From: Hyaloraphidium curvatum SAG 235-1
Lineage: Eukaryota > Fungi > Monoblepharomycota
DNA length: 64,000 nt
Direction: 5' to 3'
Assembly (NCBI GenBank): GCA_025558095.1
Contig: JAIVFI010000031.1
Coordinates: forward strand, 62,001-126,000
Shown piece after piece: positions 15,402 to 60,525 of the stretch (the first letter of the stretch is position 1; every line of letters starts with the position of its first letter). The translations under genes were made by a program, and so were the position numbers. The notes under the pieces are model-generated. The model was not told where the DNA came from, ran no database searches, and saw only the letters and a list, made by a program, of their open reading frames with translations.

Positions 15402-15451
15402 GTGCAGTTTAACACCGTGTCTCAAACACTGAGTCACCCAATATCCCCAAC

Positions 15452-16444
15452 ATGGCAGAGCCGCACGCCGCCGTCCCGGCAAAGCAGCCGCTCGGCGAGT
15501 TCGAGCTCATTTCCAAGTACTTCACGCGCCCCGCCCGCCGCGCGGTGCTCGGTGTCGGCGACGACTGCGCGCTGCTCGCCCCCCGCCCCGGGCGGCACCT
15601 CGCCGTGTCAACCGACATGCTGGTTTCCGGCCGGCACTTCTTCCCCGACGTCGACCCCGAACGGCTCGGGAAAAAGTGCCTCGCGGCGATTCTCAGCGAC
15701 CTCGCTGCGTGCGGCGCCGAACCCCTCGCGTTTACGCTGGCGATTTCCATCCCCGAACCCGACGAGGCCTTCCTCGCCGCCTTTGCGCGCGGGCTGGTGT
15801 CCGCCGCCGATTCGCACGACATCGAGCTCGTCGGCGGCGACACCACAAAAGGCCCGCTCGCGATCTGCATCACCGTGCTCGGCGACGTGCCGATCGGCGC
15901 CGCGCTCCTCCGCTCCGGTGCCGGGCCGGGGGACGACATCTGGGTCAGCGGGGTGCTGGGAGATGCCCGCCTCGCGCTCGACTCCATGCGCGGATTGCTC
16001 CCCTTGGGGGGGCGCGAGCTCGACGCCGTGGGGCCGGCGCTGGAGACGCCCGAGCCGCGGATCGCGCTGGGCGTCGCGCTCCGCGGCACCGCCACCTCCG
16101 CGATCGACCTCTCGGACGGGCTGCTCGGCGACCTCGCGCACATCCTCGAGCGATCGGGCGTCGGCGCTACCGTGGTTGCGGACCAGATCCCGCGGAGCGC
16201 CGTCCTCGCCGCGCAGCCCGCGAACGTGCAGAAGACCTGCGTGCTATCGGGCGGGGACGATTACGAACTGCTGTTCACGGCCAGCTCCCAATTCATCGAC
16301 GCCGTGCTGGAGGCGGGGCGGACGGCCGGGGTGGCGGTGACGAGGATCGGCAGGATCGAGGCCGAGGGCGGTCTCCGGGTCGTGGACGCAGACGGCGTGC
16401 CGATTGGCGACGTCGGAGGCTCGTACAACCACTTTCGCTCGTGA
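15452..16444 (+). CDS. thiL: Thiamine-monophosphate kinase (bacterial type), copy 1, intronless
   Basis: GEFELI..YF, LGVGDDCA, STDMLVSGRHF, LSDLAACGA, GGDTTKGPL, IDLSDGL, GGDDYELLFT and terminal YNHF motifs. Confidence 0.93.
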   Translation: MAEPHAAVPAKQPLGEFELISKYFTRPARRAVLGVGDDCALLAPRPGRHLAVSTDMLVSGRHFFPDVDPERLGKKCLAAILSDLAACGAEPLAFTLAISIPEPDEAFLAAFARGLVSAADSHDIELVGGDTTKGPLAICITVLGDVPIGAALLRSGAGPGDDIWVSGVLGDARLALDSMRGLLPLGGRELDAVGPALETPEPRIALGVALRGTATSAIDLSDGLLGDLAHILERSGVGATVVADQIPRSAVLAAQPANVQKTCVLSGGDDYELLFTASSQFIDAVLEAGRTAGVAVTRIGRIEAEGGLRVVDADGVPIGDVGGSYNHFRS

Positions 16445-16495
16445 TCAACATGTTCAGGACTTGATTTTGGTTGGGTGACGAACCGAGGAATCAGG

Positions 16496-16813
16496 CATCC
16501 TCGACAACCTCGGTGTCTACGCCGCCTCGAACGCCCGGATCGGCGCCGCCGCCGCCGTCCTGCTCGAGGGCGCCGACGCCGCCGCCCGCGCTGGCCTCCC
16601 CGACCCCGCCCTCGCCGCCGCACTGCGCGACCACGCCGCCCGGCTCGAGGCGTGCGCCGCCAGGTGGGCGCCCGCGAGGTTCCTCGGGTTCGAGGTGACC
16701 TACGGCGCGCTGCGGGCGCTAGTGGTGACGCTGCTGACGGTCGGGTTCGCGCTGTGGGGCATGCTGAGGGGACTGGGGGTCACCGTGGTGCTCGAGTCGT
16801 ACTGCTACGGATG
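16496..16813 (+). pseudogene. 3' fragment of the multi-TM (GRL-like) gene, duplicated from about 30215-30566
   Basis: ILDNLGVYAASNARIG...ARFLGFEVTYGALRALV...ESYCYG* with no 5' part. Confidence 0.85.
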
Positions 16814-17137
16814 AGGCGTCCTGCTCAGCACTGGCGGGCGGGGATTTGGGGTCGGGAGGCGAGGTTACGGAAGACCAAAGAGGCGCGATTCACGAGGGAG
16901 GAAAGCGGCGCGCGAGGGCTTGGAAATCGCAGATAAACGCTTTTCACCGATGGATCACGTTTCGCGAACTCGAAGACAGCAGCCGGAGCGGCACGCTCTC
17001 ACGGTCCCAAACCGCTATTCGACAGCCCAAACACCTCGTCCTCATCATTTCCAGCGGTCTCCCCTTGAAGTTGGCCTCCCCCTCGCCCCGTTCGGTCCAG
17101 GCATTCTGGGCCGGATGAAGGACTGATCGTCCGTCCC

Positions 17138-18105
17138 TCAGTCCTTTACGCACTTGCCCGTCCCGTCTCCCGCGTTACTGTCGCAATGGTTTCCGGTCCT
17201 GCAGGTGCTTCCCGCTGGCGGCGCGACGAAGCCGTCTGCGGGGAACCGGTGAGCGCTGGCGGTCGGCGGGCGCGGGGCCAGGGTTCTTACTGCAGCACGG
17301 AGTGGTGGCCACGCCGCAGATCACGCATGTCTGCCCGGGGCCGGGGCAGGTATACCCGGCGGCCGTGTTGCACGTGTTGCCCGCGCAGCAGAGCTGTGGC
17401 CCGTGCAGCGGCGGTTCGCGGCGGAAGTCCAGGATACCGTTCGGAAAGACGTCAGCCGAGACGGATGAAGCCCGAAAGAAAGCAATCGTCGGAGGTCAGA
17501 AAAGGAGATATCTGGGATCATCGGTACTCGCCTGGGAGAGGCCTCCGCAAGGGCACGTCTGGTCGCTGCGGACGCCAATCTCCGAGCCCGCGTCGCCCGG
17601 GGAGTACCCAATGCAAGTCGTGTAAAAGTCGCACGAGCCACTCGAGTCCCACGAGTAGATCAGGCACGACGTGCTGGCCGCGCACGCCGTGCGGCACTTG
17701 GCCAAGGTGTTGGCGCTTGGGTCGTTGGGGGGATCCGCCGGGTCGCCGCCGCTGCAGTACGTGTCGGTCTTGCAGGCCGAGTATGTGTAGCGACGATACA
17801 GGTGGCGCGCGGTGGGGTAGCTGACACAGGCAAGAGATCCCTCTGGAGCGCCGGGATAGGCCGCCTCGCAGTACTCCTCCGGTTTGCAACCGCCGCACGC
17901 CTCCACGAAGCGCACGTTCTCGACATCCGAATCGGCGGACTCGCTGATGGCGACCTCGAGGCCGGTGGGCACGCCGGCGGCGGACCTGTGGGGCCGGCCA
18001 GGGCGCCGCGTCAGCAGGGAAGCAAACGCCGCGCGAGCTGCGGGCCCACCGGGCGAGCGTGGCGAAGAGCGCGAGCCGCACGAGTGCTGTGAAGGTGACC
18101 TTCAT
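17138..18105 (-). CDS. Secreted Cys-rich protein (LYRR-module family, PAN/apple-like domain); introns include a probable GC-AG intron
   Basis: MKVTFTALVRLALFATLA signal; CGGCKPEEYC...ACVSY..LYRR; CRTACAASTSCLIYSW...CDFY; spliced Cys-rich tail ending CVKD*. Confidence 0.7.
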
Positions 18106-18788
18106 GGCGATGCCCAGGTTATGGCTATGCTCGTCGAGGGGACGGGTTGTCCCTGGAAAAGGGCACCAGTAGGGGGGTGCGACCCCCAGAAATGGGATAG
18201 GGACGAGGGAGATAACCTCGTTCGTAGGGCTGCTGCCACGCCCACAAAGAGCTCGGTCACCTCAGAGAGTAAACGGGCCTGAGGTGGTCACGCTGACGCA
18301 CTCGCGCCGCGCGGCGAGAAGACGGCAACGATTAAGGTCCGCAGCGGGCGGCTTCCTCGCCCATCGCGCGAAATCCGAATCAGCCTGCGGAGCGTCCCCC
18401 GATCTCCCATGCCCCCCTTTGCCCACGTGGGAGGATTGATCTTCGCGCGGCCGAGTCCCGGCGCGAATTTGGCTGCACGGATGCGCTCGCGCGAGAGGAG
18501 CGGGTCGAGGCGGAGGGCGGGATCCGCGTCAAGCGGCGTGCCGATCGGCGTAAGTCGGAGATTCGTTCAAAAGCACTTTCGATCGTGGTATCAAAACAAG
18601 TTCAGCATTTTGCTCGAATTACGCCGCCCATGAAACCGCGCCATGCCGGCCTCTCGGTCCATCCATCGATCAAGCTCGCTTCGGGGGCAATCTGCTTCGA
18701 GGGCCGAAGCCCCGACGGTCACGTGACTGAGCGTCGCCCAGACCTGGTGTCGTCGGAAACCGCGGTCCTGGGCATTCCATTCGATGCC

Positions 18789-19765
18789 ATGGAGGAGAAT
18801 GGGATGGTGGCGGAGGGCAAAGCGAACGGCGCCGCGGGTTCGGACGCCCCGCCGCCAGTGCCCCCCGCCGCGGACGCGTCTTCCGCTCATTTGGGGCCCC
18901 GTCAACGCGCCAAAGCGAAAACCCAACATCTCGATATTGTCGCCGAGGCGTATTCCGTCGCGTCAAAGTCGACGGCACACGGCGTGTGGCGCATCTTCGA
19001 CCGCCGCCGGCGCTGGGCCAACCGCATTTGCTGGGCGTTCCTGTGGCTGACGGCCTTCTCGCTGTTCGTCACCTACTTGGTGCTGCAGACCGAGTACCTG
19101 GCCAGTTTCCCCACATCGACCCTGATCACGCAGGTGTTTGTCTCGCCGACGCCGTTTCCGGCCGTCAGCGTGTGCATCTCCTCGCTGAACCGCACCACCG
19201 TCGCCGCATTCCTGCGGCCGCCGCGGGGCTCCACCGTGCTGGAGCAGGTCGCGGACATCTTCAACGGCTCGGGCGTCGCGTGCTTCTACGGGCTGCACAC
19301 CGCGCGGCAGCTGCTGCGCTACGAGATCCCCTCGGACGGCTCGGGCTGCTCGGCCCGCTCCACGGTCAGCTTCGTGGACTACCCCTTCGCCTGGTCCCCG
19401 ACGCTGTGCATCACCACGCCCGGCGACCTGGTGGCGGACCAGCCCGGCTACACGCTCACCATCGTCGGCCGCGTCCCGGGCCTGGGCGTCCTGGACCAGC
19501 TCACCTACGGAATCCGCCAGGCCGACGCCCAGTTCCAGCCGATGCTGGCCAACCTTCTCTCCACTGGCATCCACACCCGGGAACGGTTCCACATCGGCAC
19601 CACCCGCAACATCCGCAACTGCGACCCCCAGCCTGGCGGGCAGCCCAAATGTCTCGCCGACTTCCAGCAGCAGTGCGTCGAAAAGGCCTGCTCGTGCCGC
19701 TATCCCGCCGTTGCCGGCAATGTCTCGGGCTCCTCCCTCTCCGACCTGGTCGAGCAGCTCCCCGG
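18789..19765 (+). pseudogene. Truncated DEG/ENaC channel paralog lacking the distal ectodomain and TM2
   Basis: Highly similar to 30972-31940 up to LSDLVEQLPG, after which the ORF runs into unrelated sequence. Confidence 0.85.
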
Positions 19766-20514
19766 CTGGGGGACGGCGGGGGCGACGGTGTCCTTCCGCA
19801 TGGTCGAAATGAACCCGGACCCCACCCATTTTATTGAGTATTCTCATCTCGAAATCGATCGCTTCTCTAGGCATCGTCACCAGCCTTCCAGGCCTGCGCA
19901 AAGTCGGACTCCACCCCCTGTCCCACCGCCGCCAGCCGACCCGCCACCGTCAGCAGTGCTGCGTGGCGTCCGGGCGCCTGCACCGTCGGGTAAGGGCGTT
20001 TGGGTTTACCCGACTGCACAACGCTGGGGTGAGCCGGCAGATGGCTACACTACCGCAGCTGGAGCTCAGGTTTTGGATCAAACATCGGTGTGGTGCTTTG
20101 TTCAGGGAAAGCAGATCGGGATTTCCGGGATGTGCATGCTGGAGCTTCTCGTCAAGCACCGGCCGAGTGGACGCATGATTCCGGCCAATTTCGGCGGCCG
20201 GCATTTGGAGCAGGGTGGGAAGGGAAGCGCAGGCGTGCCGTTCTGCGGATCCGTCTTGTTCAGGGAAACGATGCGAGAGGCCTTTGGAAATGGAAACCCA
20301 GCACACCCTCACGTCAGCGGTCATGCCGCCCCTGATCGTAAGCTAACGTCGAACGGTCCGCCCATGCCATAGAGAGTTGACGTGATTTACACGTAGTTAG
20401 CTATGATCCGTGTGGTGCTCTTCTCCTCCTCTCTTTCCTCCTCCGTCTTCGCCCTCGAGCAGTTTCAAACTTGTCCATTACACGGCACCGGCCAATCACG
20501 TTTAGGAATTGTTG

Positions 20515-23328: not shown

Positions 23329-23794
23329 ACTCGTGATCAACAAGTTGTGGACTTCCCACTTGATTCGCCGAGCGGGACCGACTCACCGATCGGGCGGCAA
23401 GTTATTCGATCTCTTCGAGGCCCCGGCCAACGACAGCGCTTAGCTCATCCGCATCGCCGTTTCACGATCTATTCTCCACGGCAACTACGTCTGTACGTCC
23501 CGCCCCGCTCTTGGATTCCCGTTGTCGTTGGGCCTTTGAGCCGGCCCTGTCTGCCCTTTGGGTGCACTGTTTCACCGCACGCAGGCAGGAGTGACCGCAC
23601 GTCTGTTCGTGCTGCACCGTCTTACCGCTCGGGCCCATCGGAGGCGGAAAGCGTCCTTGCGCGAATCGGAAGACTCCGACCACACCTTCCTCCGGAGGCG
23701 CGAATCGTGCCACACCGGCCTCCGGCAGCTCGCAGATATCCATTAAGCGGCAATTGTCCACGACCGAGGGCGCATCGGACCTCCGCCGCCCGCG

Positions 23795-24820
23795 ATGTCC
23801 CCCCCCGCGACGCCGATCCGAGTCGCCCTCGACTGGACGCCCAACACGCTCCACTCCGGGTTCTTCGTCGCCCTCGACCGCGGGCTGTACGCCGCGGCCG
23901 CCCTTGACGTGTCGCTCGTTTCGCCGGCCGAGGACGCGTACAAGGTGTCCCCGGCCAGGAAGCTCGCCGCCGGGGATGCGGACTTTGCCGTCGCGCCGAG
24001 CGAGACGGCCATCGCCTACGCGCTGCTGCCCAAGGACAAGGGGCTGCCGCGGCTGACCGCCGTCGCCGCCCTGGCGCAAAAGGACACGAGCGCCGTCGTC
24101 GTCCGCTCCTCGTCGGGGATCGAGCGGCCGGCGCACCTGGACGGCAAGAGCTACGCGTCGTATAACGCACGGTTCGAGGGGCACATCGTCCGCGCCCTCG
24201 TGCGCGCCGATGGAGGAAAAGGGGACGTGCAGGAGGTGTTCCCGCCGCGGCTGGGGATCTGGGACACCGTCCTGAACGGGGAGGCCGATTCGACGTGGGT
24301 GTTTTTGCCGTGGGAGGGAGTGCAGGCGCGCCGGGCGGGGAAGGATCTGCGGGCGTTCGGGGTGGAGGGAGCGGGGGTGCCGTACGGGTACACGCCGATC
24401 TTGCTGGCGCGGCACGGGGATCTGGAGGGGGCAAAGGCGGAGGCATTGAAGAGGTTCATGGAGGCGACGGCGGAGGGGTACAGGATCGCGGCGGCGGATC
24501 CCGGGGCGGTCGCGGCCGCGCTGGCCAAGGTGCCGGAGCTGGCGGGGCAGGAGGAGTTCCTGGCCGAGAGCATGGCGGAGCTCGCGCCAGCGGTGCTCAA
24601 CGGTGCCGGCAAGTGGGGCGTAATGGAGGAAGCCCGCTGGGCGGCATTCCTCGGCTGGTTGGGGAAGGAGGGGCTGCTAACGGCCCCGGGGGCGCGTGGT
24701 GGTAAAGCGGTCGGGGTGCCCCTCGAGGGATCGAGCCATGGGGCCGAGGAGGTGGTGACGCTGTCGGTGCCGGTGCCGTTGCGGGCCGCCGACCTCTTCA
24801 CGAACAGTCTCCTGATTTGA
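23795..24820 (+). CDS. NMT1/THI5-family, ThiY-like periplasmic-binding-fold protein, intronless
   Basis: LDWTPNTLHSGFFVALDRGLY, PAHLDGKSYASY, ADSTWVFLPWEG and PYGYTPIL. No CCCxC motif of true THI5 and no signal peptide. Confidence 0.88.
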   Translation: MSPPATPIRVALDWTPNTLHSGFFVALDRGLYAAAALDVSLVSPAEDAYKVSPARKLAAGDADFAVAPSETAIAYALLPKDKGLPRLTAVAALAQKDTSAVVVRSSSGIERPAHLDGKSYASYNARFEGHIVRALVRADGGKGDVQEVFPPRLGIWDTVLNGEADSTWVFLPWEGVQARRAGKDLRAFGVEGAGVPYGYTPILLARHGDLEGAKAEALKRFMEATAEGYRIAAADPGAVAAALAKVPELAGQEEFLAESMAELAPAVLNGAGKWGVMEEARWAAFLGWLGKEGLLTAPGARGGKAVGVPLEGSSHGAEEVVTLSVPVPLRAADLFTNSLLI

Positions 24821-27884: not shown

Positions 27885-28004
27885 TGTGGCGGATGCGCGA
27901 TGGTGCCCCGCTTGTCGCTGCATCCTCGCACGCTTACTTGGAACAACTTGATCCGTGCAGTGTAACACCGTGTCTCAAACACTGAGTCACCCAATATCCC
28001 CAAC

Positions 28005-28997
28005 ATGGCAGAGCCGCACGCCGCCGTCCCGGCAAAGCAGCCGCTCGGCGAGTTCGAGCTCATTTCCAAGTACTTCACGCGCCCCGCCCGCCGCGCGGTG
28101 CTCGGTGTCGGCGACGACTGCGCGCTGCTCGCCCCCCGCCCCGGGCGGCACCTCGCCGTGTCAACCGACATGCTGGTTTCCGGCCGGCACTTCTTCCCCG
28201 ACGTCGACCCCGAACGGCTCGGGAAAAAGTGCCTCGCGGCGATTCTCAGCGACCTCGCTGCGTGCGGCGCCGAACCCCTCGCGTTTACGCTGGCGATTTC
28301 CATCCCCGAACCCGACGAGGCCTTCCTCGCCGCCTTTGCGCGCGGGCTGGTGTCCGCCGCCGATTCGCACGACATCGAGCTCGTCGGCGGCGACACCACA
28401 AAAGGCCCGCTCGCGATCTGCATCACCGTGCTCGGCGACGTGCCGATCGGCGCCGCGCTCCTCCGCTCCGGTGCCGGGCCGGGGGACGACATCTGGGTCA
28501 GCGGGGTGCTGGGAGATGCCCGCCTCGCGCTCGACTCCATGCGCGGATTGCTCCCCTTGGGGGGGCGCGAGCTCGACGCCGTGGGGCCGGCGCTGGAGAC
28601 GCTCGAGCCGCGGATCGCGCTGGGCGTCGCGCTCCGCGGCACCGCCACCTCCGCGATCGACCTCTCGGACGGGCTGTTCGGCGACCTCGCGCACATCCTC
28701 GAGCGATCGGCCGTCGGAGCGACCGTGGTTTTCGACTCGATTCCGCGGAGCGACGTGCTCGCCGCACAGCCCGCGAACGTGCAGAAGACCTGCGTGCTCT
28801 CGGGCGGGGATGACTACGAGCTGCTGTTCACGGCCAGCCCCGAATCCATCGACACCGTGCTGGAGGCAGGGCGGACGGCAAAAATGGCATTGACGAGGAT
28901 CGGGCGGATCGAGGCCGAGGGCGGCCTGCGGGTCGTGGACGCGGATGGCGTGCCGATCGGCGACGTCGGAGGCTCGTACAACCACTTTCGCCCGTGA
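28005..28997 (+). CDS. thiL: Thiamine-monophosphate kinase (bacterial type), copy 2, intronless
   Basis: Same ThiL motifs as 15452..16444. Confidence 0.93.
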   Translation: MAEPHAAVPAKQPLGEFELISKYFTRPARRAVLGVGDDCALLAPRPGRHLAVSTDMLVSGRHFFPDVDPERLGKKCLAAILSDLAACGAEPLAFTLAISIPEPDEAFLAAFARGLVSAADSHDIELVGGDTTKGPLAICITVLGDVPIGAALLRSGAGPGDDIWVSGVLGDARLALDSMRGLLPLGGRELDAVGPALETLEPRIALGVALRGTATSAIDLSDGLFGDLAHILERSAVGATVVFDSIPRSDVLAAQPANVQKTCVLSGGDDYELLFTASPESIDTVLEAGRTAKMALTRIGRIEAEGGLRVVDADGVPIGDVGGSYNHFRP

Positions 28998-29081
28998 TCA
29001 ACGTGTTCAGGACTTGATTTTGCTTGGGTGACGAACCGAGGGAATAAGGAATGTTCCGATTCCTCGCGCTGACCAGACACG

Positions 29082-30566
29082 ATGCCCGCCGCGCTCACCG
29101 ACGAGGAGCTCTCCGTGGCGCTGCCGTTCGTCGGCAAGCCGCCCGCGCCCCGTCCGTTTGACGGCGGCGGCCCGGACGCCGCGATGCGGGCGCTGCTCGC
29201 GTCGCTCTCCGCCGCGGAGCGCCCGACTGCCGCCGGCCTGCAAAGCGCGGCAGCCCGCTCGTCGCGCTTCCTCGGCTTCCTCGCTCGCTGCTCCCTGCCG
29301 TTTAACCAGCCCGGCACGGTCCGCTGGTTCATCGTGCTCTGCCCGCTTCTGTCCGCCGCGGTCCTGGGCCTCGTCGCCGCGTATCCCGCTCTCGCGGGGA
29401 CGGCGGCGCCTTTCGGCGCAAAGAACCTCGCGCTGGGCTCGGTGGCCTACGCCATCTTCGTGTTCGCGGTCTCGGTGCCCATGCTGGGCGTGTTCAGGAT
29501 GTGGGACGCGTCCACCGACCTTCGGCAGCAGCCGCTCACCCTGTTCTGGCGCTGGCGCCTGGCCGTGGACCGAACCCCGTCATTCAACAGCAAGGGGCAG
29601 CCGGACGAGGAGCTAGCAGCGCCGGCTTTGGGGCGGCTCGTGGCACACAAGGAGGGGGACCCGACCTGCCCCTGCCATCTCCCATCGTGCGCTGGGAACC
29701 TGGGCCACCAAGCCGGATTGTGGACCCTCGGGGATATCTTGGGCCGCTTCGGGCTGTTGTTTGCGATGAGCTTCACTCCGTTGTGGACGCCCATGGTTTC
29801 ATCAGCTTTTCTGTGGAAGACATGGTGGGGCACACTGATCGGCGTTATTGTGCTGGTCATGAATGTTTCCTGGTCCTTGTTTCTGTGTGTAACGGCTGCG
29901 CGGCGCTTCCGGGCGGCAATGACTCAGCTGTCGGGGAGGCTCATGTGCCGCTGCATCGCTGTCGAACTCGGCAACGTGCTGGACGAATATGAGCATGACC
30001 GATGGGGCCAAGCGGAGTCAAAACGCGACTGGGCCCCCGTCTACGCCATCCTCAATTACCTCACGCACGCCTGGGGTGCATGGCACAACATGCTCCTGGC
30101 CCGCACCTACACCGTCATCTCCTTCGCCGTCCTCCCTCCCGTCATCCTGAACCTGGCCGCGGGCGCCTGCATCCCGCTGTGGGAGCTCTGTGCGGGGGCG
30201 TGGTGGTTGTTCTACATCCTCGACAACCTCGGTGTCTATGCGGCCTCGAACGCCCGGATCGGCGCCGCCGCCGACGTCCTCCGCGAGGGTGCCGACGCCG
30301 CCCGTGCGATCGCCGCCGAATCTGCCGACGCCGCCGCGCGCGCTGGCCTTCCCGACCCCGCCCTCGCCGCTGCGCTGCGCGATCACGCCGCCAGGCTCGA
30401 GGCGTGCACGGCCAGGTGGGCCCCGGCGAGGTTCCTGGGGTTCGAGGTGACCTACGGCGCGCTGCGGGCGCTGGTGGCGACGCTACTGACGGTCGGATTC
30501 GCGCTGTGGGGCATGCTGCGCGGGCTGGGGGTCACCGTGGTGCTCGAGTCGTACTGCTACGGATGA
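29082..30566 (+). CDS. Multi-pass membrane protein, possible gustatory-receptor-like/7TM ion channel superfamily
   Basis: 494 aa with about 7 hydrophobic segments. A long helical stretch precedes the C-terminal RFLGFEVTYGALRALVATLLTVGFALW hairpin. Confidence 0.7.
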   Translation: MPAALTDEELSVALPFVGKPPAPRPFDGGGPDAAMRALLASLSAAERPTAAGLQSAAARSSRFLGFLARCSLPFNQPGTVRWFIVLCPLLSAAVLGLVAAYPALAGTAAPFGAKNLALGSVAYAIFVFAVSVPMLGVFRMWDASTDLRQQPLTLFWRWRLAVDRTPSFNSKGQPDEELAAPALGRLVAHKEGDPTCPCHLPSCAGNLGHQAGLWTLGDILGRFGLLFAMSFTPLWTPMVSSAFLWKTWWGTLIGVIVLVMNVSWSLFLCVTAARRFRAAMTQLSGRLMCRCIAVELGNVLDEYEHDRWGQAESKRDWAPVYAILNYLTHAWGAWHNMLLARTYTVISFAVLPPVILNLAAGACIPLWELCAGAWWLFYILDNLGVYAASNARIGAAADVLREGADAARAIAAESADAAARAGLPDPALAAALRDHAARLEACTARWAPARFLGFEVTYGALRALVATLLTVGFALWGMLRGLGVTVVLESYCYG

Positions 30567-30971
30567 GGGCGTCATGGTGCAGAGCGGGATCCGTGCCCGG
30601 TTCGACGGGCCGGGATTTGGGGGGGTATCGAAACCCTGTGTGACTCGAATGGCACATGTTCTATAGATTGCTTCTCGCTTGCGAGTAGATCATCCCCGGC
30701 TTCTCGAGCGGACCTCAACGTCACCAGCCGGAGGTCACCACGCACTCACGTTGGGCGCCACATAATGTTGCTTTACCCCTCCCGCAAGGTAGATCGGACA
30801 TGGGACCACTTCATGCAGGCCTTTCGTTCTATCCATTGATAACTAGACCGTCGCTCGGCAAGCTGCTACTCTCGCTATCCCGAGCGACGCGGGAAGCCCC
30901 GACGGTCACGTGACTTGGCGTCACCCGGACCCGCTGGCGTCGGAACCGCGTCGTGCACTCCATTCGATGCC

Positions 30972-32488
30972 ATGGAGGAGAACGGGACGGCGGAGGAGGG
31001 CAAAGCGAACGGCGGCGCGGGTTCGGACGCCCCGCCGCCCGTGCTCCCCGCCGCGGACGCGTCCTCGTCCCATTCGGGGCCCCGCCAACGCGCCAAAGCG
31101 AAAACAGAGCACGTCGACATTGTCGCCGAGGCGTACGCCGTGGCATCAAGGTCGACGGCGCACGGCGTGTGGCGCATTTTCGACCGCCGCCGGCGCTGGG
31201 CCAACCGCATCTGCTGGGCGTTCCTCTGGCTGACGGCCTTCTCGCTGTTCTTCGCCTATCTGGTACTGCAGACCGAGTACCTGGCCAGTTTTCCCACGTC
31301 GACCCTGATCACGCAGGTGTTCGTGTTGCCGACGCCGTTCCCGGCCGTCAGCGTGTGCATCTCCTCGCTGAACCGCACCACGGTCGCCGCGTTCCTGCGG
31401 CCGCCGCGGGGCTCCACAGTGCTGGAGCAGATTGCGGACATCTTCAACAGCTCGGGTGTCGCGTGCTTCTACGGGCTGCACACCGCGCACCAGCTGCTGC
31501 GCTACGAGATCCCCTCGAACGGCTCGGGCTGCTCGGCCCGCTCCACGGTCAGCTTCGTGGACTACCCTTTCGCCTGGTCCCCGACGCTGTGTATCACCAC
31601 GCCCGGCGACCTGGTGGCGGACCACCCCGGCTACACGCTCACCATCGTCGGACGCGTGCCCGGCCTGGGCGTGCTGGACCAGCTCACGTACGGCATCCGC
31701 CAGGCCGATGCCCAGTTCCAGCCGATGCTGGCCAACCTCCTCTCCACGGGCATCCACACCCGGGAACGGTTCCACATCGGCATCACCCGCAACATCCGCA
31801 ACTGCGACCCCCAGCCGGGCGGGCAGCCCAAATGCCTGGCCGACTTCCAGCAGCAGTGCGTCGAAAAGGCCTGCTCGTGCGGCTACCCCGCCGTCGCCGG
31901 CAACGTCTCCCTCTCCGACCTCGTCGAGCAGCTTCCCGGATCCTGCGCGGACAAGTACCTGAACGGCACCTGCGCCATGGCCCAGCACGGGTTCCCGTGC
32001 CCCTTGTGGATCCCCGGCACCAACTGCACCCTCTCGCAGCTCTGCGGCCCGGACGCCGCGCAGCGCGCCTGCCCGTACCCCTCCTGCGACGAGACCGCGT
32101 TCCCCTCTGCCAGCAGCTTCGCGCCCCTCGATGCTGGGGAGCTCGCGGCGCTTGGGGTCGACGCGGGGGCGGCCTCGGGCGCGTTCCTGCTCTCGGTGGT
32201 GCTCGAGTCGCAGATGGTCAGCAGGGTGGACGAGGAGCCGGCGTACACGCCGCTGAGCTACTTCGGTTCCGTCGGCGGCATGGTGGGTCCGACTCTGGGG
32301 TGCGGCGCGCGATCGGGTTGGCTCAACGGCGTTCCACGTGGTGGCAGATGAGCCTGCTGCTGGGGTTCTCTGTGCTCACGGTGTGCGAGTGGATCGAGGG
32401 GTGCTGCGTCATCGGGCGCAAGGTGGAGAGGGCGGCGACCGGGGGTTACGAGGACGTCATCGCACCAGAGGGGGCCGGAGCGGGGTGA
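30972..32488 (+). CDS. DEG/ENaC (amiloride-sensitive sodium channel family) subunit, about 483 aa, intron 32283-32347
   Basis: Pre-TM1 STAHG; TM1 RICWAFLWLTAFSLFFAYLV; FPAVSVC; Cys-rich thumb (CLADFQQQCVEKACSC...CPYPSC); EEPAY; TM2 YFGSVGGM|MSLLLGFSVLTVCEWIE. Confidence 0.9.
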
Positions 32489-45219: not shown

Positions 45220-46315
45220 ATGGCCAGCACTGTCGTATCGGCCACGTGCGCGCAGCCCGGTGCAGCGCAAGCGGACCTGCCGGCGGACGACACCGTTGAC
45301 GTGTCCTTCGTAAACGACCCCTCCCGCTTCCGCTACTTCCGGCACACCCTCCTCGCCAGCGTTCCGTCCTCTATCTTTGCGCTGCATTTCGGTCCGGGCG
45401 GGGTCAACTCCGGCAAGGCTTCGCTCCCGTCGGAATATCGCGTCGACAGAGACCCCGCTCTGTTCCGCAAGTTCGTTGACCCGACCCGTTCCTCCGCGCC
45501 CATCGCTGTCGATCGACGAAGTTGCCGCTCTGGAGCCGCGAACGGCCGCCATGCTGCGCGCCGATGCCGACTTCTACGGGCTCCCCGAAGACTTCCTGCC
45601 CGAGGTGCCCGAACGGCGGGTGCCTTCGATCCCCGGGGTGCGGATCGTGGACTTTCGCGAGGCGAAGGAGATCGTGGGAGCTCTCTTTTGGAGCTGGAAG
45701 CCTCTAATCGAGGAAGGCTCGACCGAGTGGACGCTCCAGCTCATGGAGAAGTTCCTGATTGCGGCCGAAAACACTTACCAGCTCGGCTACAATCTTCACT
45801 TTCACGATGCTTCCGACTCGGAAGAGGAAGAGGAATCATGCGGGTTCAAACCCCCGGCGGTCCTGCAGTCGGTCTCCAAGTTCGCGGAGCGTGAAGGCTT
45901 CCTTCGCCAGGACCCGGGCGAGGACGCTTTCTGGATCCACCTGCGGAAGTTTCTCCTCGACGCGAAAAAGGGAGGCTGCGAGCGGGTCGTTTTTCGTCAC
46001 CGGGCATTCATCCAAGGCAACGAAGTGCAGGGCAGGATGCTCTATGCTCTGCGGAACGGCCTCGCCGATCCCGATCTGCACATTGTGCCGTCGAGCTACC
46101 ACGAAATCGGAGAAAGAGGGAACTACAGCCACGTGGTAGTCGTCAAGGACCCTTTCCTTCACGTCGACGTGCTCGCCAACGCTTCCTCGCCCTCCAGCGG
46201 GAAAACGGCGCTCGTGATCGTTGACTACTTGGACGAGGCTACGGCGACGACACCGCGCGGGGTGTTTCCTCTATGGGGCAGGAATGAAGCGTGGCTCCGA
46301 GGGTTCGCTTCATGA
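45220..46315 (+). CDS. BTB/POZ (KCTD-T1-like) domain protein with an apparent frameshift near 45480
   Basis: TLLA...YRVDRDPALFR in one frame and LRADADFYGL in the next frame. Confidence 0.55.
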
Positions 46316-46409: not shown

Positions 46410-48298
46410 TCATCCACACTCTTCGCAGATGCAAATCACGCTGCTGCATCCCTCGCAGAACGGCATGCTGTCGGCGCCGCAAGTCCGGAGCCGAGACCGC
46501 CATCCTTCGATCGCCATCTCCCGGACAATGTGCTCGATGACCTGGCACGAGTAGCTGTTGCCGAGCTGCTGGTGACGCGTCAGGTTCGAGTCCTGGTCCT
46601 CAGTTCCGATGAGCGTGTAGTTGTCCGGGAAGCCGAGGAGGCGCTCCTCCTCCACGGGGTGCAGGGGCCTGACGCACGGATCGGGATGCGGCGACTTCCT
46701 GTAGGGCTGCAAGACCATATCCGGATCGTAGACAAGCGAGCCATGGGTTGACCTGTCCAGAGCAGCCGACAGTGAGCTTTTGGGCCGGCGAGCAAAACGT
46801 GGGGAACGAACCGCACGATGCAAAGTGCCTTTTTTCGCCACGACTCCAAAGGCTTGCCGCTCATGAGCGCGTCCAACATCGTTGGATCCGGAACTGCGCG
46901 CTGGAGCGGCTTCACTGCAAAGCAAGTCCAATCTGGAACCGTTGTCAGAGAGACACGCAGGGCTCGTTCAGCTTCACTCACAAACTCGGTCCCTCCTGCA
47001 TCCCGAAACACGATCTGCTTGGTAGCGCACAGGATAGACACCCAGCTCTTAGGGAATTAGGAGCATGAGGACCACGCAGCGTTCGCTCGAGAGCGCGACG
47101 ACTCACCTTTGGAAATGATCTCTAGGTCGTTGGCGGGCATTCCGTACACGTTCTCAACAACATAGCCGACTTTTCCGTCGCCGTTTCGTGAATTGAGCTT
47201 CCTGACCAAGGTCAGGATTCGTGGCTATTTGGAAGGAACTGAATGTGAGAAATGAAGTCGCGATAGCGCAGCCACGACTAACGATGTGGAAAAAGAGGCC
47301 GCTTCGGGATCCTTTGAGGCCCAGGCGGTCCGGTCCTTTGGCCTTTGAAAGATCTTGGCAAGGAAAACCGGCAACCACAACGTCGATCGGGCCCAGCTTG
47401 GAAAGGAGCTCCTCGGTGACGTTCTCGACCCCGCCTTGAAACTGGTTTAAGAAAAAGCTGCCACGAACGTCCTAATGGAAAGCTTACCCAGGTGTATGAC
47501 GTTGTCGTGGTTTTTGTCGAGCACCTGCACGCACCCCTGATCGATCTCGCACGAAAACATGCGCCCGACCTTGATCCCCGCCCGTTCCAGCCCCACACGG
47601 TCCCCGCCGATGCCCGTAAACAGCGAAAGCAAGCTTATTCCTTCGAATGACTCGCTGGCGAAACCGTTGGGGATCTGCGGAGGCTCGATCGTGACCGACG
47701 GGGGAGAGAGCACAGCTGGAGGCGGAGCGGTCTTTAGGAAGGGCTCGAGCTTGTCCGCCACGACGTCGAAATGGTCCGATGCAATCGAGAGATCAATCGA
47801 CACGCGCATGTGGAACTTGGCGTTTGCCGCTATGACGACGCTGCCCTTGACGAAAGACACCACTCCGAGGTCCAAAAGAGGGCCGAGATGGTGGGCAAGC
47901 GGCCTCGGCACGAAGCCAAGCTGATTCCGCTCTGTTTCTGACTCCGTAGAAGCACCTCCAGCGAGTCCATGATCGACATCGAGAGCGCGCGCGATAGCGA
48001 TCGCGTTCGCGTCGTGGGGATTGTCCCTTTGCCGCCGAAAGACCACCGCCTCGCCAACGACCGCTGCTTTCGCGCGAGATGCGTGCGCAAATGCTCCGGC
48101 AACTTGAATGGAAGGGAGTACGAAGGCGGTGGTCGGACCACGGGCCGAATGCGCTGAGGCGCCTTCGTCAGCCCGGCTCTTCTTTTCCGGGCGATCAGGC
48201 GGGGCGGAGCGACTGACACGCGGTGCGAGGAGCGAGCGAGAGGAAACAAAGCCTCCGAGATTGGGCGTCGCCGGCTGTTCCTCGCGTCTGCGCTTCAT
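46410..48298 (-). CDS. HIRAN domain fused to a DNMT3-like C5-cytosine DNA methyltransferase, 5 introns, C-terminal Cys cluster
   Basis: HIRAN: VAG...GEAVVFRRQRDNPHDANAI...LGFVPRPLAHHLGPLLD. MTase: LSLFTGIGG (I), SCEID (II), GPIDVVVAGFPCQDLS (IV), SGLFF (V), VVENV (VI), RRDRVYW (VIII), EERLLGFPDNYT...RHQQLGNSYSCQVIEH (IX-X). Confidence 0.88.
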
Positions 48299-48388
48299 CG
48301 CGTTGTCAGCTGTTCGTTCGAATCATCACGCGCGCCAATCAGGTAGACCAACAGGCAGAGCTTCGAATCCTACGACTACGATCAAGCA

Positions 48389-49854
48389 CTACAACTTAAC
48401 CATCATCTTCCCCTTGTTCCGCCCTTCAAACACGTCCTTGAGCGCCCGCCCAGCATTCTCCAGCCCTTCTCGCTCGTCGTTCAAGATCACCAGCTTCCCC
48501 GCGCGCTTCATCTCGACCATCTTCTTCATCATCCACGGAAACTCGGAGGCGTATGTCCTGCGACCCTCGGTGAGGCCAAGAAAGCTCGTCCGTCGAAACT
48601 ACGACTCACGTGAAGACGTAGCCCTCCATGCGGAGGTTCTTCCCCACGATGTTGAGGTAGTTGGAGGGTCCTGCAGGCTTGGCATCGCCGTATATCGAGA
48701 TGCCGCCGCAGAGCACGATACGGCCGTTCAACTTGAGGAGATCGAGGGCGATCTCGAGCGTCTCGCCGCCAACATTGTCAAAGTATTCCACGATGCCGTC
48801 AGGGCAAGCCGCCTTAAGGTTCTTGCGGAAGTTGGGCGCCTTGTCTGGAGGAGATGTCAGGCAAACAATAGAAGAAACCGAAAGCGGGCAAGGATCACAT
48901 ACAGTCGACGCACTTGTCGAACTTGAAGACCTCTTCCGCCAACTTGCACTTTTCCGGGCCGCCGGCGGTGCCGATAACCCTGCAGCCCAGATCCCGGTAG
49001 ATCTATCGGCACATTACTCGAGTAGAGTTCTCCCAGCCGACGGCGAAAGCGTACCTGTCCAGCAAACGAGCCGGTCGAGCCTGCAGCTCCGGAGACAAGT
49101 ACCGTCGAACCGGGCTTGAGCTTGCCGTCCGCAGCAAGACCGACCTTGTAGATGCCGACCTGGTGCCCGTGTCAATCAGCTCCGACGACAGGATGAGTTC
49201 AAAATCTCACCATCGCAGTTAGCCCCGTTAGCTGGAGACTAATCTGGTCCGCAGGAGAGATACCCTCGGGCAGACTAAAGAGGCAACGAGATGTCAGAAC
49301 GTCTTCTACCTGCCCACGTCCAATAATCTCACTTCAGCCTCCCAATCTCCTTCTCGTTCACAAGGGCGTACTCTTGCCTGGATCGAATTTTGTCAAGACA
49401 TACAATGAGACGGACTCAACGACAACGAGTATATACCATCCCGACATTCCCCTAACGAGGTCCCCGGCCTTGAACTTCTCCGACTTGCTCTCCACCACGC
49501 GAGACACGGTGCCGCCCCTCATGACCGAGTTGAGGGGCACAGCCGGGACGTAGGTGTCGTAGGTCATCCTTTCCGGAGGAACGATGAAGGCCAGGGCCAT
49601 GAGCGAAGGCCAGGCGTGGGAATCGCCGGCGAGTAGAGACGATGAGCTAGGTCCCAGCTCCCGCATCGCTACGAATCTCGCGCCCACCATCCTCGCATGG
49701 TCGGATCCAACGAAAGGTAGAGGTTCCGCACGACGACATCCCCGGGTTTTGCTGCCTTGGGCACCTCGGTCTCCCGGAGCTGGAACAGCTTTTCAGGCTG
49801 CAGGGGCCCTGGTTCCGGCCGCGCGACCAGCATGATCTGCCGGTTCTTCGACAT
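48389..49854 (-). CDS. NADP-dependent MDR oxidoreductase (prostaglandin reductase/CurA-like), many introns
   Basis: RNLYLSLDPTMRGW, VMRGGTVSRVVES, VSGAAGSTG, YFDNVGG, GRIVLCGGIS.Y and GRNKGKMMVKL. Confidence 0.88.
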
Positions 49855-59456: not shown

Positions 59457-59762
59457 ATGTGCTCCGCCGCCGCCACCAACGCCAAGTCCGCCGACGCCGC
59501 TGACCTCATCTCGAAGGGCGGCGGGAATCCGCCGTATCAGCCGGTGCCGTCGGCGCCGGCGGGGACGTTCGTGCGCCTCGAGGACGTGCTCGAGAGCCCC
59601 ACGTTCGGGCTCTCGCCGGCCTACGTCGCCACGCTGGTGGCGCGCATCGAGCAGCGCTTTGAACTTCATGGCCGCGCAGCGCCACCACCATCACGGCGCG
59701 TGCCACTACCACGGCCACCATCAGCAGCAGCAGCAGGCGCAGCCCTGTGGACAGAAATGTAG
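59457..59762 (+). CDS. Small ORF (101 aa) overlapping the deaminase ORF in a different frame
   Basis: ATG after an A-rich leader, and a protein-like segment FVRLEDVLESPTFGLSPAYVATLVARIEQRF. Confidence 0.35.
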   Translation: MCSAAATNAKSADAADLISKGGGNPPYQPVPSAPAGTFVRLEDVLESPTFGLSPAYVATLVARIEQRFELHGRAAPPPSRRVPLPRPPSAAAAGAALWTEM

Positions 59763-60525
59763 GGAAGCCGCGTGCTGCCCGGCCGGCGAGCCCGGGCCCT
59801 GCCCGCCGGTCCCTCCCCCTGTGGCGCCCAAGCGCCGCGCCCCCTCCCCTTCCTCCTCCGACAGCGACGCCCCTTCCCACTCCTACTCCTCCCTCTCCAG
59901 CAGCAGCGACGACGACGACCCGCACCCCCCCGGCCGGCGGCGCCGCCTCCCCTCCTCGTCCCCCCCTCCCCCTCCCCCCCCCGCCATCCCCCGCCGCTCC
60001 ACCCCCCGCTCGCACAGCTACATCCACGTCTGCGTCATCCTCTCCCGCAAGGACGGCTCCGTGCTGGCCGACGGCTTCAACAGCGAGGTCTCGGTGCGCG
60101 AGGCCACCCCCCGCCGCGGCTTCTCCATGCACGCCGAGGAGATGGCCCTGGACAAGCTCCTGCGGCTCCCCCGCTCGGAAACGGGCAAGCGCCTGCGGTG
60201 CGGCGTGGACGTGGTCTCGCTGCGCGTGAGCAGGGCCATGGTGGTCGGCATGTCGCGGCCGTGCCTGCGGTGCGCGGGCAGGCTGCAGAGCCAGGCGGCC
60301 ATGGTGCGCCGGGTGTTCTGGTGGGAGGCCGGGAAGGAGGATGCGGGCGGGGGGTCGGTGGTGCAGGCCAGGGTGGAGGAGCTGCAGGGGCACGCGGAGC
60401 ACTCGACGGGGGATTTCTTCGTCAAGAGGGGGAGGAGCAAGAACTACACCTGCCCGGCGGTGCAGCAGTACCGCCCGCCGCAGGCGCAGGGCAAGTTCGG
60501 GTACTACCGGGCGAGGTACGGGTAG
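59668..60525 (+). CDS. Zn-dependent cytidine/dCMP deaminase-like protein with low-complexity N-terminus
   Basis: HVCVIL...GFN...SMHAEEMAL...VVSLRV...MSRPCLRC (HAE and PCxxC). Confidence 0.75.
   Translation: MAAQRHHHHGACHYHGHHQQQQQAQPCGQKCREAACCPAGEPGPCPPVPPPVAPKRRAPSPSSSDSDAPSHSYSSLSSSSDDDDPHPPGRRRRLPSSSPPPPPPPAIPRRSTPRSHSYIHVCVILSRKDGSVLADGFNSEVSVREATPRRGFSMHAEEMALDKLLRLPRSETGKRLRCGVDVVSLRVSRAMVVGMSRPCLRCAGRLQSQAAMVRRVFWWEAGKEDAGGGSVVQARVEELQGHAEHSTGDFFVKRGRSKNYTCPAVQQYRPPQAQGKFGYYRARYG

Follow-up and report, generated by a model that had tools for sequence, protein, structure and literature searches.

A DNMT3-like cytosine methyltransferase domain joined to a HIRAN domain in the fungus Hyaloraphidium curvatum

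Background

Known DNMT3-type enzymes are targeted through histone readers or through RNA pathways. The animal enzymes DNMT3A and DNMT3B carry PWWP and ADD domains, and the plant enzyme DRM2, whose catalytic domain is DNMT3-related, has circularly permuted motifs and a UBA domain. Sarre et al. 2025 (PMC12344493) report in their survey that protist DNMT3s have no companion domains, and the reports on microalgae (Hoguin et al. 2023, PMC9998398) and Amoebidium (PMC11244446) describe DNMT3s with no extra domains. The C5 cytosine methyltransferases of fungi include DNMT5 (an SNF2-methyltransferase), DIM-2, RID and DNMT1. According to two reviews fungi have no known canonical DNMT3 (PMC13297926, PMC9915587), and the table of the survey has DNMT3 in none of 26 fungi; the first-pass annotation of the DNA analysed here had also placed DNMT3 outside the standard fungal set.

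In HLTF the HIRAN domain is attached to a SNF2 translocase and a RING domain. Work on this domain assigns the reading of the 3'-OH to D94 (PMC5773155) and the clamping or stacking of the last two bases to Y72 and Y93 (PMC4666394, PMC5773155), whereas the HIRAN domain of yeast Rad5 binds single-stranded DNA without a preference for a 3'-OH and also binds PCNA (PMC7804152). An earlier statement that the HIRAN domains of HLTF and Rad5 bind free 3'-OH ends therefore stands for HLTF and not for yeast Rad5.

Here we describe a gene of Hyaloraphidium curvatum, a fungus of the Monoblepharomycota, whose product combines a HIRAN domain with a DNMT3-like catalytic domain. No description of a fusion of HIRAN with a cytosine methyltransferase was found in the literature searched, although an earlier mention may exist. 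The word HIRAN is absent from the main text of PMC13297926, PMC9915587, PMC12344493, PMC9998398 and PMC11244446, the available part of PMC3417536 does not mention a HIRAN-DNMT3 fusion, and nothing relevant was found in the literature on Hyaloraphidium.

Results and discussion

Gene structure and transcript

The gene was found in a stretch of 64,000 nucleotides (the window) belonging to a 573-kb contig, and it has six exons and five GT-AG introns (Table 1). The spliced exons encode 536 amino acids with no internal stop, and the product is identical to the NCBI protein KAI9009076.1, hereafter P0001. The first-pass annotation had spliced five GT-AG introns into one protein, and both the NCBI protein and a 1533-nt contig from sequencing run X1, which is presumed to be RNA, agree with it. 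This contig (depth 20) spans 48125-46358 with 0 mismatches, has all five introns precisely spliced out and joins HIRAN to the methyltransferase exons; a second contig from the same run, of 207 nt, includes the ATG of P0001. Transcript support comes from this single run of presumed RNA status, and since the NCBI model may use similar RNA data, the contig and the model are not fully independent. The fusion of HIRAN with the methyltransferase holds whatever splicing model is used, because HIRAN and methyltransferase motif I are both in one unspliced open reading frame, that of exon 1. These results confirm that this is a real spliced host gene joining HIRAN to a DNMT3-like catalytic domain.

Table 1. 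Positions in the window of the gene, its exons and introns and the features of its product
Feature	Position	Strand	Description
HIRAN-methyltransferase gene	46410..48298	-	6 exons, 5 GT-AG introns; spliced translation
Exon 1	47488..48298	-	aa 1-270: basic disordered N-terminus, FxxA-like motif, HIRAN, Pro-rich linker, motifs I-II
Short motif F-x-x-[AS]-x-x-[LIV]	48230..48250	-	aa 17-23; common to two HIRAN-bearing relatives
HIRAN, HLTF/lp_0118-type fold	47741..48130	-	aa 57-186; Pfam core aa 76-171
Motif I, F227-x-G229-x-G231 (SAM binding)	47606..47620	-	alignment of relatives
Intron 1	47435..47487	-	GT-AG, 53 nt; spliced contig
Exon 2	47283..47434	-	aa 271-321: motif IV, catalytic P295-C296 at 47363-47358; G272 in motif III
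Intron 2	47225..47282	-	GT-AG, 58 nt; spliced contig
Exon 3	47107..47224	-	aa 322-360: motif VI, E345-N346-V347
Intron 3	47048..47106	-	GT-AG, 59 nt; spliced contig
Exon 4	46982..47047	-	aa 361-382: motif VIII, R379-x-R381
Intron 4	46933..46981	-	GT-AG, 49 nt; spliced contig
Exon 5	46812..46932	-	aa 383-422: short DNMT3-type target-recognition region begins
Intron 5	46753..46811	-	GT-AG, 59 nt; spliced contig
Exon 6	46410..46752	-	aa 423-536 and stop: motifs IX (E457, E459, P465) and X (G487-N488-S489), Cys cluster
Cluster C-x2-C-x4-C-x-C	46416..46457	-	aa 522-535; low pLDDT

Similarity of the catalytic domain to DNMT3

The credible Pfam matches in the 536 amino acids of P0001 are HIRAN and DNA_methylase only, and PWWP, ADD, UBA, SNF2, BAH and RFTS domains were not found. 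Both matches of the spliced protein are above their cut-offs: DNA_methylase (PF00145) has E 6e-25 and 88.8 bits against a cut-off of 22, and HIRAN (PF08797) has E 5e-11 and 42.6 bits against 24.7. The dcm model TIGR00675 scores 88.1, which is under its prokaryotic cut-off of 100.65.

When P0001 was searched against the sequences in the PDB, DNMT3A came first (2e-25), followed by DNMT3B, DRM2 (4e-18) and M.HhaI (1e-10), and none of the 50 matches at E<=0.01 was a DNMT1, DIM-2, RID or DNMT5 chain. A family-profile search of solved structures gave DNMT3A at 4e-60, DRM2 at 1e-43 and HhaI at 1e-21, and in both searches DNMT2 chains scored far lower than DNMT3. The similarity to DNMT3A reaches the linker upstream of motif I (aa 204-219). 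The AlphaFold model of P0001 has a mean pLDDT of 78.7, with 78-98 per 10-residue block in the methyltransferase domain, and all 34 matches listed by Foldseek for this model are DNMT3A, DNMT3B or DNMT3C, the catalytic-domain chains having target TM values of 0.81-0.87. The ESM Atlas returned only DNA_methylase clusters for the whole of P0001, with scores <0.9. The earlier assignment of the domain as DNMT3-like, and not DNMT1-, DIM-2-, RID- or DNMT5-like, is thus upheld by DNMT3A/B being the best solved match in sequence as well as in fold.

P0001 has in common with DNMT3A and DNMT3B the catalytic fold, the motif order I-X, a short target-recognition region and the similarity in the linker ahead of motif I. 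It differs from them in having HIRAN instead of PWWP and ADD, which were detected in the animal relatives, in an identity of about 29%, and in motif X, which is GNS where animal DNMT3 has GRS. Unlike DRM2, it has the motifs in the order I-X and no UBA domain, and unlike DNMT5, DIM-2, RID and DNMT1 it is without SNF2, BAH and RFTS domains and is only 536 amino acids long. By its sequence P0001 belongs to PF00145 and PF08797 and classes with neither animal-type DNMT3 nor DRM nor DNMT5.

In its layout P0001 resembles a DNMT3 in which a putative reader of DNA structure replaces the histone readers.

The HIRAN domain and the proposed mechanism

The isolated HIRAN model (pLDDT 71.7) matched Lactobacillus plantarum lp_0118 with Z 12.0, HLTF with Z 11.6-11.9 and K. 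lactis Rad5 with Z 8.6-8.7, as compared to Z 5.9 or less for unrelated folds; the rmsd to HLTF and lp_0118 is 2.1-2.9 over 96-109 residues, with E 3e-6 for HLTF. A HIRAN profile search found HLTF at 6e-11 and lp_0118 at 6e-8, and Rad5 was not among its seven matches at E<=1. The HIRAN domain that had been read from the letters is therefore present, with a Pfam match above cut-off and a barrel fold with Z about 12 to HLTF and lp_0118.

We take R71, H110 and K113 of HLTF, in addition to the residues named above, to be pocket positions with functional roles. P0001 has N93 at HLTF N91, D96 at D94 and R132 at K113, and these three equivalents, like the fold, are common to P0001, HLTF and lp_0118. 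In contrast, A71 stands at Y72, H95 at Y93, F70 at R71, which is adjacent, and F129 at H110, and there is an insertion of 17 residues. Among the four aligned members the D94 position is D, H, D, D (the His is in P0058, and the paralogue also has Asp), the Y72 position is A, Y, N, Y, the Y93 position is H, H, H, Q, and the K113 position is Arg in all four. The HIRAN region has 13 Lys and Arg and 14 Asp and Glu, which gives no net positive charge. Judged by these residues, the pocket is HLTF-like but eroded. By analogy with the known HIRAN domains that of P0001 probably does bind DNA, and we hold this with some confidence. Because the pocket is HLTF-like but eroded, the chance that it would bind a 3' end through D96 is about even, if anything slightly below. 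End-specific targeting is plausible at most, since the equivalents of D94, N91 and K113 are kept and those of Y72 and Y93 are Ala and His. Speaking against the reading of 3' ends are Ala71 and His95 at the stacking positions, Phe at R71 and H110, and the His of P0058 at D94.

We propose, as a reading that has an even chance of being correct, that P0001 works as a DNMT3-type de novo methylase which HIRAN tethers to 3' ends or to junctions of single-stranded and double-stranded DNA. HIRAN is predicted to hold the protein there, and nearby DNA would then be methylated de novo; the disordered linker (aa 190-202) would allow the methyltransferase domain to act up to a few turns of the helix away from the end. 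The absence of BAH, RFTS and SNF2 domains suggests that the activity is de novo and not maintenance. The role would likely be to mark for silencing DNA that has just been broken or repaired, or that is invading. How foreign or newly inserted DNA is first recognized for methylation is a general open question, and a small methylase with a built-in sensor of DNA structure would make the idea of ends as the trigger testable using one recombinant protein.

It is possible, though we doubt it, that the enzyme is an active DNMT3-like methylase in which HIRAN is a general anchor on DNA or single-stranded DNA, or a protein adaptor, with no specificity for 3' ends; HIRAN would then raise affinity or couple the enzyme to replication, as with Rad5 and PCNA. 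The replacement of both HLTF pocket tyrosines and the variability of the pocket across members would fit this, as would the Rad5-type domain with its lack of 3'-OH specificity, and since the protist DNMT3s are reported to have no companion domains HIRAN may be a mere accessory anchor. However, both the fold and the profile place this HIRAN domain nearer to HLTF and lp_0118 than to Rad5, it has retained the residues equivalent to D94 and K113, and no PIP box was found in any of the six members examined.

The termini of the protein

FxxA is a motif by which proteins bind the RAD51 recombinase. The N-terminus of P0001 begins with the basic segment MKRRRE, a candidate nuclear localization signal as described earlier, and contains a short motif at aa 17-23 that presumably resembles FxxA, which we treat as a lead only. 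The pattern F-x-x-[AS]-x-x-hydrophobic has five matches in three of the four N-termini compared, against 0.34 expected on shuffled sequences, a statistic that is optimistic because the pattern was defined after the sequences had been seen; in 12 relatives that lack HIRAN the N-terminal extensions contain it once in total. The C-terminal Cys cluster noted in the first reading is indeed found, and it is predicted to be a zinc knuckle. It is common to P0001, P0057 and P0058, the last having Ser for the last Cys, and elsewhere among the collected proteins the pattern was matched only in P0077 and P0212, within their ADD-like region. The protist and algal DNMT3s are reported as bare, whereas P0001 adds HIRAN, the Cys cluster, the N-terminal motif and a fungal host.

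A broader proposal, which we consider unlikely to hold in full, is that these proteins would form a family of damage-coupled de novo methylases aimed by DNA structure and not by histone marks or small RNAs. HIRAN on 3' ends and the FxxA-like motif on RAD51 would together place 5-methylcytosine at breaks, at reversed forks and on foreign DNA that is entering or integrating, and P0001 would be the first DNMT3 in a fungus.

Other HIRAN-bearing members

H. curvatum has a paralogue, P0002 (KAI9025478.1), which is 51% identical to P0001 over aa 69-504 and has both the HIRAN and the methyltransferase domain. Its deposited model is fused to an SDR domain and lacks the 22 residues bearing motif VIII, which is exactly the length of exon 4. 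It is probable that the gap is an exon missed in the gene model and that the SDR domain is a fusion made in the same model. One short contig of run X1 (presumed RNA) fits at <90%, and its loose ends, read by eye, encode P0002 sequence.

A HMMER search gave 13,591 matches at E<=0.001, and among the best 150 of these, which were examined, four carry HIRAN counting P0001, the others being P0058, P0059 (with cluster member P0205) and P0097; the number of HIRAN-bearing members is therefore a lower bound. HIRAN is above the Pfam cut-off in P0002, P0059 and P0097 and below it in P0058 (21.6 bits). P0097 has only half a catalytic domain, and P0057, which is in the HIRAN clade of the trees described below, has 58 residues ahead of the methyltransferase domain and yet no HIRAN. 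From their positions in the trees and from intron-like truncations of their open reading frames we infer that P0058, P0059 and P0097 are eukaryotic.

In word-based homologue searches (1, 55 and 71 matches) HIRAN was seen only in the two H. curvatum proteins, and these searches are insensitive because they missed P0058, P0059 and P0097. Motif scans of DNA for further members gave 0 and 0 hits on viral contigs and 0 and 4 on metagenome contigs; three of these four metagenome loci encode DNMT3-like pieces and none has HIRAN. Blank scans of this kind are weak evidence because introns can break such patterns. The first-pass annotation had matched the architecture to no characterised protein. The lack of a description found agrees with this, but the architecture is not unique to P0001, since it recurs in the paralogue and in three further proteins. 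It is apparently a small, recurrent and undescribed family. A DNMT3-like gene in a fungus with a recurrent, apparently undescribed architecture is, from these comparisons, well supported.

Phylogeny and origin

Trees were made by FastTree with 219 rows, by IQ-TREE under LG+G4 with 59 rows (bootstrap not fully settled) and under LG+C20 PMSF with 42 rows. The 219 rows were reduced by hand to 59 and then to 42, P0097 and the long-branch P0199 being dropped from the 42-row mixture-model tree, and none of the trees included a DNMT1, DIM-2, RID, DNMT5 or DNMT6 sequence. The methyltransferase domains of P0001, P0002, P0205, P0058 and P0057 grouped together with support of 97 in FastTree, 84/85 under LG+G4 with P0199 inside, and 99/95 under PMSF; a clade at 99/95 would mean that HIRAN has been retained over a long divergence. 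P0097 fell outside this clade in the FastTree and LG+G4 trees, and its inclusion was not rejected (p=0.478).

The HIRAN clade grouped with the DNMT3s of animals, Balamuthia, a dinoflagellate and Klebsormidium in four trees with support of 80-94. The eukaryotic grouping had 94/85 including DRM under LG+G4, and under PMSF 86/70, which became 84/78 when DRM and two phage-like rows were counted in; it takes in one protein from a viral contig. AU tests rejected a clade made up solely of the two fungal proteins and animal DNMT3 (p=0.029). A HIRAN clade sister to animal DNMT3 plus P0077 (p=0.223), with the phage-like set (p=0.135) or with the outgroup (p=0.121) was not rejected, and because even the outgroup grouping survives, these tests are low in power. 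Taken together, the trees and AU tests place the fungal genes closest to other HIRAN-bearing proteins. P0001 is probably a DNMT3 in the broad sense, and for descent from the eukaryotic DNMT3 clade the trees give only moderate support. The two DNMT3-like paralogues of H. curvatum would then be an exception to the absence of DNMT3 from fungi, by retention or by transfer.

A somewhat unlikely origin is independent capture from phage or bacterial DNMT3-related methylases, followed by fusion of HIRAN and spread among microbial eukaryotes. Such an origin would be compatible with either mechanism of targeting, and fungi would then still be without a true DNMT3 orthologue. Most of the best 150 HMMER matches are short, single-domain and phage-like and score equal to animal DNMT3s, and phage and bacterial DNMT3-related C5 methylases are 33-46% identical to P0001 over the N-terminal half of the catalytic domain. 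The modest support for the eukaryotic grouping with its viral-contig protein, the two AU results for the phage-like set and for the exclusive animal grouping, and a Gonapodya prolifera without DNMT3 point the same way, and HIRAN itself has been proposed to come from the replication systems of caudate phages (PMC3417536). Against capture, the HIRAN clade is among eukaryotic DNMT3s in all four trees, the similarity to DNMT3A continues into the linker ahead of motif I, and the AU tests that would favour capture are low in power and did not reject the sister grouping with animal DNMT3 plus P0077. The phage and bacterial enzymes, moreover, are single-domain and intronless, and among 80 viral loci, those whose methylases are closest, none had a HIRAN open reading frame within 2 kb.

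Catalytic residues

The claim of intact C5-methyltransferase motifs (FxGxG, PC, ENV, RxR and IX-X) was substantiated in the alignment, in which motifs I, II, IV (PC), VI (ENV), VIII (RxR), IX and X of P0001 are intact and in the order I-X. G229, E251, C296, E345 and N346, which do not vary in any of the 87 relatives aligned, are all present in P0001, as are R379 and R381, which occur in 85 of the 87. R379, R381, W384, E457, E459, P465 and G487 are >=90% conserved among the 87 relatives and P0001 has all seven. The one departure is in motif III, where P0001 has G272 and 67 of the 87 relatives have Asp; this Gly may weaken SAM binding. The target-recognition loop aligns ambiguously to DNMT3A and for this reason no sequence preference is predictable. 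From these residues it is likely that P0001 methylates the C5 of cytosine in double-stranded DNA. By analogy with known enzymes of this kind, it would very probably do so by SAM-dependent base flipping, with C296 making the nucleophilic attack while E345, R379 and R381 contact the cytosine.

That the protein is instead catalytically weak or inactive, or acts on RNA or single-stranded DNA, and is mainly a DNA-binding scaffold, is very unlikely. The change of Asp to Gly in motif III would agree with it, as would the paralogue model without motif VIII. So would the CpG observed/expected ratio of the window, which at 1.13 is not depleted, so that the window bears no sign of widespread CpG methylation. 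However, P0001 has every catalytic residue, in a domain that is modelled with the pLDDT values given above, and DNMT2 chains are far below DNMT3 in score.

Genomic setting

GC at 46-50 kb is 0.58-0.59 as compared to 0.61-0.74 elsewhere in the window, and the GC3 of the gene, 0.705, is at the low end of the window range; together these are a weak hint at most. This composition could suggest an error of assembly or annotation, contamination, or a gene carried by a transposon or an endogenous virus, but such an explanation is hardly credible and already largely refuted, since the spliced contig agrees base for base, the gene and its paralogue are on contigs of 573 kb and 817 kb, respectively, the intron sizes are like those of a neighbouring gene, no transposon or viral family matched among 56 open reading frames of the window (picked mostly by codon bias from 138 of >=200 aa), and no long terminal or inverted repeats were found within 42-54 kb. 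The neighbours are ordinary host genes, encoding an oxidoreductase, a MYND-finger protein, a beta-galactosidase, an ankyrin protein and a cullin, and the adjoining oxidoreductase gene has seven introns, six of them of 51-59 nt, the same size as those in the gene for P0001.

The paralogue and other DNMT3-like methylases

The paralogue P0002 (KAI9025478.1) lies outside the window. Its gene model includes a fused SDR, and the 22 residues missing from it correspond exactly to exon 4, the exon that carries motif VIII. Both the SDR fusion and the missing residues probably reflect mis-annotation, with intron positions that are probably conserved.

Related DNMT3-like ORFs without HIRAN were found on two metagenome contigs (table), and the one on L082 is split between two reading frames. 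The 805-aa DNMT3 from Logan/ENA contigs (P0077 / P0212) has an ADD-like finger, which at 22 bits was under the cut-off, and in the tree it was placed outside of and adjoining the animal DNMT3s (support 92/75). This position, together with the finger, may inform the timing of ADD acquisition. Among the related proteins, P0056 (618 aa) carries a tandem pair of C5 methylase domains, both of them complete, and P0199 has a CW zinc finger on the C-terminal side of its methylase.

Neighboring genes and an apparent thiL duplication

The oxidoreductase gene upstream of the methylase gene is on the same strand with only about 90 nt between them, and its transcript contig reaches 48279, beyond the methylase ATG at 48298 (region 48279-48392). 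The convergent gene downstream was partially covered by contigs of sequencing run X1 and gave no match in Pfam and NCBIfam scans.

Elsewhere in the window there is an apparent segmental duplication with copies about 12.5 kb apart. In both copies the thiL ORF is bacterial-type and uninterrupted, with TIGR01379 above cut-off, and the putative sodium-channel ORFs match Pfam ASC (E 6e-11 and 6e-16). Both thiL and DEG/ENaC appear atypical of a fungus.

Features in the window and on metagenome contigs
Feature	Position	Strand	Remark
Convergent gene downstream of methylase	45220-46315	+	two overlapping ORFs
Possible cytidine/deoxycytidylate deaminase ORF	59458-60525	+	weak match, E 8e-5, under cut-off
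Duplicate copy 1	15413-20372	+	thiL ORF, then putative ENaC/DEG sodium-channel ORF
Duplicate copy 2	27966-32351	+	thiL ORF, then putative ENaC/DEG sodium-channel ORF
NMT1/THI5 gene	23747-24820		between the two copies
DNMT3-like ORF	L082:1045-2498	+	metagenome contig
DNMT3-like ORF	L083:1114-1962	-	metagenome contig
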